Shown one piece after another: positions 5,957 through 29,326 of a stretch of DNA of 64,000 bases. The notes under the pieces are model-generated. The model saw only the letters and a list, made by a program, of their open reading frames with translations. It searched no databases and was not told where the DNA came from. Source of the stretch: Escherichia coli (GTDB lineage: Bacteria > Pseudomonadota > Gammaproteobacteria > Enterobacterales > Enterobacteriaceae); assembly GCF_041886205.1 (NCBI RefSeq), contig NZ_CP169029.1. One strand, 5' to 3'. Every line of letters begins with the position of its first letter. Positions within the stretch are counted from its first letter, which is position 1. A program made the translations under genes and the position numbers.

Positions 5957-8900
5957 TTAGTCAAACGGCGGTGGGGCCAGCACTTCACGATTACCGTTGT
6001 GCCCCTGTTCGCTGACAATCCCCTGCGCTTCCATCTGTTCGATAATACGCGCTGCACGGTTATAACCAATGCGGAACTGACGCTGTACGCCTGAAATTGA
6101 CGCTTTGCGTTTTTCAGTGACAAACTGCACCGCCTGATCGAACAACGGATCCAGTTCTTCAGCGCCATCGAAACCGCCCGCGCCACCTTCGCTTTCGCTG
6201 TCGGAGGTGATGCCATCAATATACTGTGGGCGACCACGCGCTTTCCAGTCCTGCACTACGGCATGAACTTCCTGATCGCGAACAAAAGCACCATGGACAC
6301 GTACCGGTAACGTGGAGTTCGGCCCAGAGTAGAGCATATCCCCCATACCCAGCAGTGATTCCGCACCAGCCTGATCAAGAATGGTACGTGAGTCAATCTT
6401 ACTGGATACGGTAAAGGCGATACGGGTCGGAATATTCGCTTTAATCAGACCAGTAATAACATCAACCGATGGACGCTGAGTTGCCAGTACGAGGTGGATA
6501 CCCGCGGCACGGGCTTTTTGCGCCAGACGTGCTATCAGCTCTTCCACTTTTTTACCTACCGTCATCATCAGGTCGGCAAATTCGTCCACCAACACCACAA
6601 TGTATGGTTCTTTTTTCAGCACCGGATGCTGGGCGTCCATACTGTCACCCGGCTTCCAGTACGGGTCTGGAATCGGACGCATCATGCGATCGGCTTCAGC
6701 AATTTTTTCGTTATAACCCGCCAGATTACGCACACCCAGCGCAGACATCAGTTTATACCGACGCTCCATCTCGTTAACACACCAGCGCAGCGCGTTGGCG
6801 GCATCTTTCATATCAGTAACGACTTCCGTTAACAGGTGCGGAATGCCTTCATACACCGAAAGCTCCAGCATTTTCGGGTCGATCATGATGAAACGCACAT
6901 CTTCTGGCTGTGCTTTATAAAGCATGCTCAGGATCATCGCGTTCACACCGACAGATTTACCGGAACCGGTAGTCCCCGCAACCAACAAGTGCGGCATTTT
7001 CGCCAGATCGGCAACCACCGGCTCACCGGCGATATCTTTACCCAGCACCACGGTTAATGGCGACGGATTATCGCGGAATTTGGCGTTATCCAAAACTTCG
7101 CGCAGATAAACGGTTTGTCGTTTTTTATTTGGTAACTCCAGACCTACATAGGGTTTGCCAGGAATAACTTCAACGACACGCACCGCCACCGTCGAAAGTG
7201 AACGGGCAAGGTCCCGTGACAAGTTAGAAATGCGCGCCGCTTTTACGCCAGGAGCCAGGTTAAGTTCAAAGCGAGTGATAACCGGCCCCGGAGAGTAATT
7301 GACGACATCGGCTTTAATACGGAAATCAGCCAGACGCGCTTCCACCAGACGAGCCATTTGTTCAAGCGCAAAGGTATCTACCGGCTCCACTTCGCTCGGC
7401 GGCGGTGTCAGCAAATCCAGAGAAGGCAGCGGCGTCGTCGGTTTATGCAACGGACGGCTGTCGCCATTACGCATCAACAGCGGATGAAGCAGGGTATCCT
7501 GCTGCTGCGGTGCAACCGGTTGTTGCGGCTGCTGATACTGCTGCTGCGGCGCAACTGGTTGTTGCGGCTGCTGATATTGCGGCTGTGGCGCAACCGGTTG
7601 TTGCGGCTGCTGATATTGTGGCTGCGGCGCAACCTGCTGTTGTGGCTGCTGATACTGCGGCTGCTGATATTGCTGCTGTGGCGCAACCGGCTGTTGTGGC
7701 TGCTGATACTGCTGCTGCGGTGCAACCGGTTGTTGCGGCTGCTGTACAGGTTCAACAATTGGCGTAAACAACGGTTCGTGTGGACCATCATCCAGCAACG
7801 CTTTCATTGGCGAAAATTCAAAATCATCCAGCGAGAACGGATTCGCCCCAGCCGGTTGTTCGCCGGAATAACGTTGTTGTTGAGTTTGCGCAAACTGACG
7901 AGCCAGTTCAGCCTCTGCCGCAGCATCTGCATCTTCTGCGTTTACGGGCACATCATGTTGATACTGTTCGCCATAGCGTTGCTGCTGTGTCTGGGCGAAC
8001 TGACGTGCCAGTTCATCCTGCTGCATCGCATCGATTTCATCATCGTTGTACTGATCGCCAGAATCGTACTGATTGCGCTGGGCTTCACGGGCTTTTTCTT
8101 CCGCCGCACGCTGTGAGGGCAGCTTAATACCGTAAGACGCCAGTTCACGACGAGTTGGCACGCGGATACGTTTCGGTCGTGGCAACTGCGGGCCAATCCC
8201 CTCTTTGACCTGCGGACGCGGTCCACCGCTATTTGCCAGACTGAAGACTGGCGCGGCAACGGTTGCGGCAGCCCCCGTCGCCAGTGTCGCTTTTTTCACG
8301 CCAGATGCCAGCGGAGAAACAGCGGCAGCGGTTTCTACTGGAGGTACTGCTGCAACAGAAGGTGCTTTCAGCGAAGATTTGATCGGTTCTGGTTCTTTAA
8401 CCGGTTCTGGAATCGGTTGATACCAGGCCGCAAGTTGTTCACGTTCACGGGCACGCTTCTCTTCCACTTCTTCAAAGTAGTAAAGCGGAGGACGCGCGGG
8501 TTTTGTCTCTTCTACAACGGGTTCAGGTTCCACAACAGGCTGCTGTTCAACAGGTTGCGGCTGTTGGTACAACGGTTCCTGAGCGGCTGGCTGCTGATAA
8601 GTTTGCTCAGTCTGGTATGTAGACTGTGGAGCAAAAGTGGATTGCTGCTCTTCGGCTTGCCAGGCGTTACCTGCCACCGGTTGTTCTGGCGCGGGGGCGT
8701 AATACGGTTGCTGAACAGGTTGTTCCGCCGCAGGAGCGTAGTAAGGTTGTTGCACAGGTTGTTCAGCTGCAGGCGCATAATACGGCTGCTGTGGCTGTAC
8801 AGGTTGTTGCAGCGGCTCATTATATTGCACTGCAGGCTGCGCATATTGTGGCTGCTGTGGGTAACCTTCCGGTGCAGGAGCAATAACCGGCTCTCCCGTT

Positions 8901-17383: not shown

Positions 17384-17531
17384 CATTTTATCTGCCTGTA
17401 CGGCAGTGAACATGGTGGGCGGGTGGAGTATGTTACCAGTGAATTTCTAAGCTGCCTGTACGGCAGTGAACGCCAACTTTCACAGCCTTTGCAAGATTGT
17501 TCCTTTCTAAGCTGCCTGTACGGCAGTGAAC
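17384..17531 (-). CRISPR. Orphan type I-F CRISPR mini-array: 3 repeats, 2 spacers of 32 nt, no adjacent cas genes
   Basis: Minus-strand 28-nt repeat GTTCACTGCCGTACAGGCAGCTTAGAAA (the E. coli/Yersinia subtype I-F repeat) at 17504-17531 and 17444-17471, plus a degenerate terminal copy at 17384-17411. Spacers at 17472-17503 and 17412-17443 are exactly 32 nt each. Confidence 0.85.
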
Positions 17532-27236: not shown

Positions 27237-27932
27237 ATGTTCAGAAAATTAGCAGCTGAATGTTTTGGTACTTTCTGGCTTGTTTTTGGTGGCTGTGGTA
27301 GTGCTGTACTGGCCGCAGGCTTCCCGGAATTAGGCATTGGTTTTGCCGGCGTGGCGTTGGCGTTCGGTCTGACCGTTCTGACGATGGCCTTTGCTGTTGG
27401 TCATATTTCTGGTGGTCATTTTAACCCGGCGGTCACTATTGGTTTATGGGCTGGCGGACGTTTTCCGGCAAAAGAAGTCGTTGGCTACGTAATTGCCCAG
27501 GTTGTCGGCGGTATTGTTGCAGCGGCGCTGCTGTATTTAATTGCCAGTGGTAAAACGGGTTTTGACGCGGCAGCCAGCGGTTTTGCTTCTAACGGTTATG
27601 GCGAGCATTCACCAGGCGGTTATTCCATGCTTTCCGCGCTGGTAGTTGAACTGGTATTGAGTGCAGGTTTCCTGTTGGTGATCCACGGCGCAACCGACAA
27701 ATTCGCGCCGGCAGGTTTTGCGCCGATCGCTATTGGTCTGGCCTTAACCCTGATTCACTTAATTAGTATTCCGGTGACTAACACTTCTGTTAACCCGGCG
27801 CGCAGCACCGCGGTTGCTATCTTCCAGGGCGGCTGGGCATTAGAACAACTGTGGTTCTTCTGGGTGGTGCCAATTGTCGGCGGCATTATCGGTGGTCTGA
27901 TTTACCGGACCCTGCTGGAAAAGCGTGATTAA
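27237..27932 (+). CDS. aqpZ: Aquaporin Z
   Basis: ORF track 27231..27932 (GTG); start trimmed to [22 protein letters not shown] (231 aa); two NPA motifs (GGHFNPAV and NTSVNPAR). Confidence 0.95.
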
Positions 27933-27943
27933 TTAACGCAGAA

Positions 27944-27971
27944 GGCCTGGCGTAATGTCAGGCCTTTTTTT
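27944..27971 (+). terminator. Intrinsic terminator after aqpZ
   Basis: aggcctg-gcgtaatgtc-aggcct hairpin followed by seven T. Confidence 0.55.
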
Positions 27972-28039
27972 AAGATGTTGTTATATGTTGATTCATCATC
28001 TTGTTGCGCTCCTTTCATGAGCTAAGCCACATATTGCCA

Positions 28040-28255
28040 CTGGCGCAAGGAGCGCGCAGGGGGCGGCCAATCGCCGCCGCCCCCTGCACCCCCGGGCTCT
28101 GGCGAACAAAATCGCCGCTGCGCGGTGCCCTCGACTTATCCCTTACGGCTACCGGGTCGGGCGCGAGGTAACATCCCTGTAAAACGCGCCCTCAGCCCAC
28201 ATCCATGTGGGCTGCCCCGGCCTTCAGGGAACGCCTCGGCGATTTTGACGCCACC
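28040..28255. repeat. GC-rich, imperfectly palindromic intergenic element (unclassified)
   Basis: About 215 bp of unusually high GC with nested inverted repeats: gcgctcct/aggagcgc, ggcgaacaaaatcgccg versus cggcgattttgacgcc, and the hairpin agcccacat-cc-atgtgggct at about 28193-28212. Lies between the aqpZ terminator and the lysO start. Confidence 0.3.
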
Positions 28256-28426
28256 AACATCGGTGCAGTTTGTAATTAAAGCGCAAGAATATCTTTAAAT
28301 GAAAACGAATACTCTACTGCTCCTTATGCATAACATTTCCTTTTAATTGCAACTTTACTCGTCCTTCCGCTTTCAGTAGTGTGTCATCGCGCATTTCGAC
28401 TTCATCTTTGCAAGGACTGGGTTTTC

Positions 28427-29326
28427 ATGTTTTCTGGGCTGTTAATCATTCTGGTTCCCCTGATTGTGGGTTACCTTATTCCGCTTCGCCAACAAGCTGC
28501 GTTAAAAGTTATTAATCAGCTATTAAGCTGGATGGTTTACCTTATTCTCTTTTTTATGGGTATCAGTCTGGCGTTTCTCGATAACCTCGCCAGTAACCTG
28601 TTGGCGATTCTGCATTATTCTGCCGTCAGTATTACCGTTATTTTACTGTGTAATATTGCCGCCCTGATGTGGCTCGAGCGAGGCCTGCCGTGGCGCAACC
28701 ACCATCAGCAAGAAAAACTCCCGTCGCGTATTGCGATGGCGCTGGAGTCGCTAAAACTGTGCGGCTTAGTAGTGATTGGTTTTGCCATTGGTCTGAGTGG
28801 ACTGGCTTTCTTACAACACGCGACCGAAGCCAGTGAATACACGTTAATTTTGCTACTTTTCCTCGTTGGTATTCAGTTGCGCAATAATGGCATGACCTTA
28901 AAGCAGATTGTCCTTAATCGCCGGGGAATGATTGTCGCCGTGGTGGTGGTTGTCAGTTCATTAATTGGTGGTTTAATTAACGCCTTTATTCTTGATCTCC
29001 CCATCAATACCGCGCTGGCAATGGCCTCCGGTTTCGGCTGGTATTCTCTTTCCGGTATTTTATTGACCGAATCTTTTGGTCCGGTAATCGGGAGCGCGGC
29101 GTTTTTTAATGATCTGGCCCGTGAACTGATTGCTATTATGTTGATCCCTGGGCTGATTCGCCGCAGCCGCTCTACTGCACTGGGCTTATGCGGTGCCACA
29201 TCAATGGATTTCACCCTGCCCGTTCTTCAACGTACTGGCGGGCTGGATATGGTCCCGGCGGCAATTGTTCACGGTTTTATTCTTAGCCTGTTAGTGCCGA
29301 TCCTCATCGCCTTTTTCTCTGCGTAA
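28427..29326 (+). CDS. lysO: Lysine exporter LysO (YbjE)
   Basis: ORF track 28379..29326; start trimmed to MFSGLLIILVPLIVGYLIPL (299 aa); polytopic membrane protein. Confidence 0.93.
   Translation: MFSGLLIILVPLIVGYLIPLRQQAALKVINQLLSWMVYLILFFMGISLAFLDNLASNLLAILHYSAVSITVILLCNIAALMWLERGLPWRNHHQQEKLPSRIAMALESLKLCGLVVIGFAIGLSGLAFLQHATEASEYTLILLLFLVGIQLRNNGMTLKQIVLNRRGMIVAVVVVVSSLIGGLINAFILDLPINTALAMASGFGWYSLSGILLTESFGPVIGSAAFFNDLARELIAIMLIPGLIRRSRSTALGLCGATSMDFTLPVLQRTGGLDMVPAAIVHGFILSLLVPILIAFFSA

Follow-up and report, generated by a model that had tools for sequence, protein, structure and literature searches.

The window, the whole 64,000-nucleotide stretch of Escherichia coli DNA analyzed here (contig NZ_CP169029.1), runs at the locus considered as the reverse complement of the K-12 region around 912-916 kb and shares with it the flanking genes and their order (window coordinate = 943284 - K-12 coordinate). 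The GC-rich block under study lies in the spacer between two ORFs of the plus strand, aqpZ upstream (27237..27932; K-12 annotation b0875 through a 99.7% match) and lysO, also called ybjE, downstream (28427..29326; ORF and K-12 annotation). This spacer measures 494 bp between the aqpZ stop at 27932 and the lysO ATG at 28427, close to the 490 bp or so estimated by an earlier sequence-only reading. Its left end carries the intrinsic terminator hairpin of aqpZ (27941..27972, plus strand), GAAGGCCTG...CAGGCC followed by seven T, recognized by an inverted repeat (27942-27949/27959-27966) and the T-run. This hairpin lies outside the repeat. Towards lysO, Shimada et al. 2014 predicted a constitutive sigma-70 promoter in the ybjE-aqpZ spacer (TTGACG-19-TGTAAT). 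The corresponding plus strand segment is 28245..28276 (TTGACG...TGTAAT, hexamers 28245-28250 and 28271-28276), with a 20-nt spacer as read here; its -35 hexamer falls inside the right end of the repeat, and our consensus scan missed it. Two short ORFs (56 and 57 aa) also span the element; as this stretch is a structured repeat that occurs in both orientations, they were set aside as coding candidates.

Base composition sets this region apart. In 100-bp windows, G+C reaches 63-73% across 28000-28249 vs 35-42% on either side. The high-GC segment of roughly 215 bp proposed from the letters is real: the 222 bp at 28038-28259 have 68.0% G+C, whereas windows of 222 bp average 50.9% (SD 6.2%) across the 64 kb. 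This value is attained by just 2 of the roughly 6400 windows, and the 64-kb maximum falls inside the element. The nested inverted repeats noticed in the segment are equally real, with perfect stems of 12, 10 and 9 bp and a 16-nt closing stem. The absence of a REP core was also borne out. With up to 3 mismatches the REP consensus has no match in the element, its sole match in the 64 kb being at 44939-44972, and no REP-derived Rfam family matches the element. Like REP/BIME sequences, the present element is a repeated intergenic palindrome rich in GC, and an effect on chromosome topology has been suggested for both. However, the REP unit is about 35 bp long and occurs in hundreds of copies, whereas the present unit is about 270 bp long, is found in a handful of copies per E. 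coli genome and lacks the REP consensus.

The element is 99.7% identical (99.655% over 290 nt) to K-12 positions 915,006-915,295. This match, the conserved order of the flanking genes and the exact occurrence of a published G-quadruplex (G4) forming 20-mer identify the block, judged by sequence and position, as the already known TRIP1a / RRS-lysO. The label "unexplained" given to it by the sequence-only reading therefore falls, since it belongs to a repeat family with a name and a published function. Three TRIP1 repeats were found in K-12 by Rudd 1999, as reported by Li et al. 2024 (PMC10888264). In the latter work TRIP1a occupies K-12 915016-915281 (266 bp, top strand), 70 bp after aqpZ, 31 bp downstream of the aqpZ terminator and 158 bp before ybjE/lysO; converted, this is 28003..28268 on the minus strand of the window, between the aqpZ stop and the lysO ATG. 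TRIP1b follows putP and carries a 125-bp internal deletion, TRIP1c follows yohI/dusC in the opposite orientation, and types d and e lie at alx-sstT and copA-ybaP in strains other than K-12 (PMC10888264). The RRS-lysO of Pham et al. 2024 (PMC11194060) is defined as a 222-bp unit located 168-389 bp upstream of the lysO ATG, which corresponds to the 68% G+C segment at 28038..28259 (minus strand). The window copy does not differ from the K-12 TRIP1: it has the same sequence, position and paralogues, with a G+C of 62-68%, and represents the K-12-type "forward" allele. The same 222-bp unit and the exact G4 20-mer of the RRS papers (PMC10287960, PMC11194060, Kusi-Appauh et al. 2026 bioRxiv) are present. 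The complete sequence shared with paralogues, taken here as the TRIP1 unit, extends over 27993..28275 with its G-rich strand on the minus strand, as delimited by alignment with dusC-yohP copies (O157, strain 81009) and 19 other copies. The left boundary first drawn at 27975 was thus some 20 to 60 bp too far left, paralogue homology beginning at about 27993 and the two published units at 28003 and 28038.

Of 5426 complete E. coli genomes searched by BLAST, 5425 carry the element; the median number of places per genome is 3 and the maximum 10. No second copy was found inside the 64-kb window when the element was compared with it by BLAST. Membership of a less common intergenic repeat family, one of the options initially envisaged, is therefore the correct one: multiple near-identical copies of a known family do occur elsewhere in the genome, among them the paralogues that follow dusC and putP. 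Genomes whose best match is only 91-93% identical led to the paralogue located between dusC and yohP. In K-12 this dusC copy (2229115-2229386) is 94.1% identical to the window element and lies on the opposite strand, while the putP copy (about 1080844-1080997) aligns as two blocks with an internal gap. The neighbors of the other copies are unrelated (dusC-yohP, putP-efeU, alx-sstT and copA-ybaP), and 99% of TRIP1 copies were assigned to five fixed loci by Li et al. (PMC10888264). Tail-to-tail pairs are observed in Pseudocitrobacter and Kluyvera, the second Kluyvera element being more divergent.

Both strands have a strong folding potential. Folded as single-stranded DNA, the minus strand reaches -73.4 kcal/mol (z = -6.8 against dinucleotide shuffles) and the plus strand -71.0 kcal/mol (z = -6.9); none of 200 shuffles folded equally well for either strand. 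The consensus fold of the G-rich strand, derived from 20 aligned copies, includes 13 helices and 68 pairs. It consists of a long closing stem and three more enclosing helices around two hairpins with GGA loops, a small side hairpin, and a 3' extension formed by a GC hairpin that overlaps the G4 motif and then a tail hairpin. In the window, the core domain (28107..28247, minus strand) is closed by the 16-nt inverted repeat 28107-28122/28232-28247, with 11 perfect pairs followed by further pairs. Hairpin 1 (28193..28214, minus strand) is an inverted repeat with a perfect 10-bp stem (28193-28202/28205-28214) and the loop region ACAUGGAUGU, which conforms to AYGGAY. Hairpin 2 (28159..28191, minus strand; helix 8 of the consensus) has a 7-bp GC stem, GGGCGCG/CGCGCCC, around ACAGGGAUGU, and its loop is AGGGAU rather than AYGGAY. 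Its inner stem is only 2 bp long in the window copy, and the Kluyvera equivalent is a perfect ACAUGGAUGU hairpin. In the 3' extension, the G4-forming 20-mer 5'-GGGGGTGCAGGGGGCGGCGG-3' (28093-28074, minus strand), described together with its polymerase-blocking activity by Pham et al. 2024 (PMC11194060), has a single exact match in the window and none on the plus strand. It is overlapped by a perfect 12-bp GC hairpin with loop CAATCGCC (28056..28087; stem 28056-28067/28076-28087). The tail hairpin GCGCTCCTT...AAGGAGCGC, at the 3' end of the G-rich strand (28006..28055), has a perfect 9-bp stem (28006-28014/28047-28055).

Covariation was analyzed on the G-rich strand of the 20 copies, which come from Escherichia, Kluyvera and Pseudocitrobacter. 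In this alignment 97.2% of the cells pair. Compensatory changes affect 26 of the 68 base pairs, vs 9.3 +/- 1.8 for shuffles and 3-9 for controls with slid partners, although the copies are mutually related and much of this signal comes from two divergent lineages. The three helices that enclose the two hairpins, beside the closing stem, show covariation. In the GC hairpin (28056..28087, helix 12) compensatory changes concern 5 of 8 pairs and the loop is conserved: the stem GGGGGCGGC/GCCGCCCCC becomes GGGGGAGGA/TCCTCCCCC in TRIP1c and CAGGGTGGT/GCCACCCTG in subfamily 2. The tail hairpin (helix 13) exhibits compensatory changes in 4 of 8 pairs, with GTTCAC/GTGAAC in subfamily 2. The G4 itself is only loosely conserved: the subfamily-2 copies and the Pseudocitrobacter b-type copy retain G-runs but lack the 20-mer, in contrast to the precise covariation of the hairpin stems. 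The conserved agent may therefore lie in the hairpins and not in the G4 by itself. What is conserved is a multi-helix fold of the G-rich strand, about 270 nt long, with extensive compensatory change.

The two strands are not equivalent in this respect. Read on the G-rich strand, wobbles of the G·U/G·T type occupy 80 cells in 18 pairs, vs 8 cells in 4 pairs for A·C. Since the structure had been predicted on the G-rich strand, the alignment was folded as its reverse complement as well. With RNA parameters the consensus fold reaches -87.7 kcal/mol on the G-rich strand vs -72.0 kcal/mol on the reverse complement, and with DNA parameters -40.2 vs -35.7 kcal/mol. The wobble asymmetry and the stabler fold of the G-rich strand together indicate that selection targets the single-stranded form of this strand, as expected if the element acts in replication gaps. 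However, folded single-stranded DNA also tolerates G·T wobbles, and the asymmetry therefore fits a folded lagging-strand template and an RNA equally and does not discriminate between them.

The replication properties of the element come from the RRS literature. When the RRS G-rich strand serves as lagging-strand template, polymerases are blocked on it and gaps as long as 2 kb result (PMC10287960, PMC11194060, Kusi-Appauh et al. 2026 bioRxiv). According to these papers, both RRS of K-12 show RecA and SSB single-stranded DNA peaks on the lagging strand, which are gone once the RRS are deleted; Pol I, II and IV are all stopped at the RRS G4; and the RRS is active wherever it is inserted. In single-molecule replication a gap forms at essentially every RRS encounter, and less often in reverse orientation. 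The two K-12 RRS copies are inverted; they flank dif at a distance of about 650 kb each, where the Ter macrodomain has its edges. Their double deletion was obtained only together with a 200-kb amplification, which points to conditional essentiality, and it alters genome-wide supercoiling. In purified replication systems the element is active as DNA (Kusi-Appauh et al. 2026 bioRxiv). Concerning orientation, no gap peak was seen in vivo with an inverted RRS in one study (Pham et al. 2024, PMC11194060), and some activity was seen in another (Kusi-Appauh et al. 2026 bioRxiv). Polymerase block, gap formation and conditional essentiality have been shown by others in K-12.

On these grounds, TRIP1a/RRS-lysO most probably acts in the window strain as a DNA replication-gap element and not as a leader of lysO; we would give this reading a probability of about 0.85. 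Synteny with K-12 and the plus-strand GC skew (-0.027 over the 64 kb, both origin and terminus being outside the window) suggest that the G-rich minus strand is the lagging-strand template here, and the strain would be expected to behave like K-12 at RRS-lysO. In the proposed sequence of events, unwinding at the fork would expose the G-rich (window minus) strand as lagging-strand template, and the exposed strand would fold into the G-quadruplex and a nest of hairpins. The lagging-strand polymerase would halt at this fold and re-prime beyond it; the transient single-stranded gap so created, up to about 2 kb long, would be occupied by SSB and RecA. In the proposal of the discoverers, such a programmed gap might provide a topological swivel where the Ter macrodomain has its edge; this role as a topological relief valve is the hypothesis of the RRS authors rather than a demonstrated function.

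Natural variation among the 5426 genomes does not fit this scheme in every respect. The RRS papers describe position and sequence as highly conserved, whereas both loci are polymorphic in orientation here, and deletion alleles are common. Between aqpZ and lysO, the K-12-type allele is found in 4026 of the 5426 genomes and an inverted O157-type allele in 1282 (24%). The O157-type allele has the opposite orientation and different flanks, and lacks the aqpZ terminator. In ST131 the allele is forward and carries an 80-bp deletion that removes both GGA hairpins and leaves the G4; in S88 and related strains it is inverted, with about 137 bp deleted and the G4 again kept; the G4 is also largely kept in K-12 TRIP1b. 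At dusC-yohP the K-12 orientation occurs in 3315 genomes, and most of the others (about 2100, including O157, ST131 and W) have the inverted one. A simple site-specific inversion was ruled out, the spacer flanks of the two alleles being unrelated at both loci. The two orientations are therefore likely to have arisen by independent insertion or cassette replacement. Forward and reverse copies had already been counted by Li et al. (PMC10888264); in the RRS and TRIP1 literature examined we found no discussion of what this polymorphism implies for the orientation requirement of the RRS.

These observations weigh against the gap explanation on three points: inverted lysO and dusC copies are common in nature, alleles without the whole two-hairpin core are common too (ST131, S88, TRIP1b), and the G4 20-mer is only loosely conserved. 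The frequency of the core-deletion alleles indicates that the two-hairpin core is not required for a copy to persist. Inverted alleles, and alleles that have lost the core and kept the G4, constitute natural variants that bear on which part of the element is needed and in which orientation. What the present analysis adds to the published descriptions is the orientation variation at both RRS loci, the compensatory changes, the wobble bias of the G-rich strand, and a resemblance to the TwoAYGGAY motif.

This resemblance emerged from Rfam searches, an approach that the sequence-only reading had suggested. At gathering thresholds nothing was detected within the element when the whole window was searched. 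In a permissive cmscan of an 801-bp region, the only notable match was TwoAYGGAY (RF01731) on the minus strand (28248..28109; 30.6 bits, E = 0.011), and no riboswitch, of lysine or another type, and no known sRNA was found in that region. The gathering cut-off of this family, 43 bits, is reached neither by the window copy nor by K-12 TRIP1c (30.9 bits). However, the Kluyvera homologues that can be aligned over their full length exceed it (54.2 bits for L014 and 44.6 bits for L027), and adjacent b-type copies in tail-to-tail arrangement score 49.2 bits. Rfam lists TwoAYGGAY as a candidate RNA without assigned function from Clostridia, gamma-proteobacteria and gut metagenomes; the motif is present in multiple copies in Psychromonas. 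Like the motif (Weinberg et al. 2010), the enterobacterial element has a pair of neighboring hairpins whose loops read A(Y/G)GGAY, enclosed by a long closing stem, and these features lie on its G4-bearing strand; the P1 stem of the motif corresponds to 28107-28122/28232-28247. Both loops are ACAUGGAUGU (AUGGAU) in Kluyvera, and the second loop of E. coli is ACAGGGAUGU (AGGGAU, with G for Y). AGGGAY loop variants occur in the part of the Weinberg et al. 2010 alignment that was examined; that same part yielded no E. coli K-12 entry. The elements differ in several features: the E. coli copies score 30.6-30.9 bits, their second loop, AGGGAU, sits on a poor inner stem, and the enterobacterial element has a 3' extension of about 100 nt (the G4/GC hairpin and the tail hairpin) that is missing from the Rfam model.

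A further link is provided by hairpin 1. In a scan of one genome per species, its exact 20-mer AGCCCACATCCATGTGGGCT was found at 27 loci, a taxonomic range that is a lower bound as the scan favors copies that have hairpin 1, the alignment likewise over-representing conserved hairpin-1 sequences. These loci belong to Escherichia species, Kluyvera, Pseudocitrobacter, three Lachnospiraceae MAG loci, a Thiotrichaceae MAG and others. Those of Lachnospiraceae qualify as genuine TwoAYGGAY RNAs (72-79 bits), and their 20-nt hairpin is identical to that of the enterobacterial element. TRIP1/RRS may tentatively be regarded as the enterobacterial branch of the TwoAYGGAY family, although we consider this possible rather than probable. 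If true, the TwoAYGGAY motifs found in many phyla would be replication-gap elements acting at the DNA level, or the RRS would double as a CsrA-binding RNA. The match of the core in any case points to relatives far outside the enterobacteria, which could serve as natural test cases. A connection between TwoAYGGAY and RRS/TRIP1 was not encountered in the RRS, TRIP1 or TwoAYGGAY literature examined.

The same resemblance leads to the strongest alternative to a replication-gap element, namely that the minus strand also, or instead, produces a structured TwoAYGGAY-type RNA whose GGA loops would capture a CsrA dimer, the RNA being either a decoy or a 3' UTR under regulation. The sub-threshold match on the minus strand and the Kluyvera homologues above the cut-off argue for it, and the covariation and wobble asymmetry fit an RNA made from the G-rich strand. 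The wobble asymmetry is nevertheless not specific to RNA. CsrA binding has moreover been proposed for TwoAYGGAY by Gardner's group. The sequence ACANGGANGT matches only twice in the 64 kb, and the two matches are the two loops, 28 nt apart. ACANGGANGT is the CsrA/RsmE hairpin consensus, and the loop of hairpin 1 fits it as A/UCANGGANGU/A. The likeness to CsrB/CsrC is one of motif only: GGA in hairpin loops, ACA...UGU flanks, and a distance of 28 nt between the two sites that would suit one CsrA dimer. CsrB/CsrC differ by having about 9-22 sites vs two here, and at the present locus neither a promoter or terminator nor CLIP or expression evidence was found. The promoter and terminator scan around the element called no site, a weak negative as the obvious aqpZ terminator (9-nt loop) was also missed. 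The CsrA CLIP-seq gene tables list no binding for ybjE or dusC, where multi-mapping reads from repeats may have been lost, and no literature report of a transcript or of a CsrA target at these loci was found.

The genomic context of such an RNA depends on the allele. In the O157-type arrangement the G-rich strand directly follows aqpZ without terminator, and some alleles at dusC-yohP place it after yohP or dusC; co-transcription as a 3' UTR would thus be possible. In the allele of the window, however, the RNA strand would be antisense to both neighbors and comes after the aqpZ terminator. Deletion alleles lacking the hairpins are common, and the element works as DNA in purified replication systems. 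An RNA function, in addition to or in place of the DNA function, thus seems unlikely, and this includes the unannotated small RNA envisaged by the sequence-only reading.

A second alternative sees in the element a selfish or relic non-autonomous mobile repeat (MITE-like) that has no host function, the gaps being a side effect of its structure. Several features would be expected of such a repeat: up to 10 places per genome, a location that is always intergenic and just after stop codons, either orientation in one spacer with unrelated flanks, internal-deletion derivatives, and the tail-to-tail pairs of Pseudocitrobacter and Kluyvera. The presence of the 20-mer hairpin in distant taxa and the multiple TwoAYGGAY copies of Psychromonas point in the same direction. 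However, no terminal inverted repeats, target-site duplications or associated transposase were seen, and 99% of copies occupy five fixed loci (Li et al., PMC10888264). The fold is under strong purifying and compensatory selection, and the RRS papers report conditional essentiality and a symmetric placement around dif. We regard this origin without function as improbable, marginally more so than the RNA.

A structured 5' leader or riboswitch placing lysO under lysine control was the leading idea of the sequence-only reading. It would agree with the position of the element 158-168 bp upstream of the lysO start and with the overlap between its right end and the lysO promoter predicted in the literature, but it is very improbable: this promoter would initiate transcription downstream of the element, which would thus lie outside the lysO mRNA; no lysine riboswitch or other cis-regulatory Rfam family matches the plus strand at E <= 10; near-identical copies adjoin unrelated genes; the element is inverted in 1282 of the 5426 genomes and half-deleted in others with lysO intact; and the wobble asymmetry favors the strand antisense to lysO.

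The aqpZ-lysO spacer (27933-28426) exists as at least four alleles among the loci compared (L032, L033, L034 and L002), and all four retain the G-quadruplex-forming 20-mer of the repeat element (28093-28074, minus strand). The K-12-type allele is found in 4026 of 5426 genomes. In the ST131-type allele, the element (TRIP1a, 28003-28268; RRS-lysO, 28038-28259) is in the forward orientation and both GGA hairpins of its core are removed by an 80-bp deletion. The O157-type allele carries the element inverted, with unrelated flanks and without the aqpZ terminator (1282 genomes, including its deleted form). In the S88/Z1323-type, the element is inverted and approximately 137 bp of its core are deleted. 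In the O157:H7 strain SS TX 313-1 (L032), the annotation gives aqpZ as a pseudogene interrupted by an internal stop. Record NZ_CP148327.1 (L002; pZ1323HEC0475-2, 42 kb) is annotated as a plasmid. The 8-kb stretch examined there contains chromosomal genes only (poxB, hcr, hcp, lysO, aqpZ, ybjD, ybjX and macA) and the record may correspond to a misassembly or an excised circle.

The copy located between dusC and yohP (TRIP1c/RRS-dusC) is also polymorphic in orientation, as observed by comparing K-12 (L035, 2228000-2231000) with O157 and strain 81009 (L003/L004). It has the K-12 orientation in 3315 of 5426 genomes and is inverted with unrelated flanks in most of the others (O157, ST131, W). The orientation states at the two loci are uncoupled. 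The dusC-yohP match of strain ES2 (NZ_CM184352.1, H171) is divided into two pieces spanning 1578 bp overall, compared to the 801-bp query, and overlaps an IS1A-family transposase gene.

A constitutive RpoD promoter, TTGACG-19-TGTAAT, was listed for ybjE (lysO) in the aqpZ-lysO spacer by Shimada et al. (2014). These hexamers can be read at 28245-28276, where we count a spacer of 20 nt rather than the 19 listed. The -35 hexamer falls within the right end of the repeat, so K-12-type alleles may draw part of their lysO promoter from the repeat.

Tail-to-tail pairs of elements, each combining two different subfamilies with about 30 bp or less between the partners, occur in Pseudocitrobacter, Kluyvera and another Enterobacteriaceae genome (L007, 1860-2140 and 2160-2440; further pairs in L027, L014 and L024). 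The second, b-type, element of these pairs shares the entire architecture of the first and differs in sequence in nearly every stem. A subfamily 2 copy of Escherichia whittamii (L021, ~8461-8840) includes an internal GC-rich, hairpin-forming insertion of approximately 90 bp. The exact 20-mer of hairpin 1, AGCCCACATCCATGTGGGCT, reappears in distant taxa: three times within a different repeat of one Thiotrichaceae MAG (L011-L013), once adjoining tRNA genes in a Gammaproteobacteria MAG (L025), and in canonical TwoAYGGAY RNAs of Lachnospiraceae MAGs (L017-L019), whose closing stems appear very long by eye.

A consensus search of the 64-kb window identified no REP consensus in the element and a perfect match at 44939-44972; the REP family is therefore present in the window, though not in the element. 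STnc130 (2306-2440, 140 bits) and the RybB sRNA (60980-61058, 104 bits) were recovered at the Rfam gathering threshold. Two CRISPR-DR4 direct repeats on the minus strand (17444-17471 and 17504-17531, 50.1 bits each), 60 bp apart, form a minimal orphan array.
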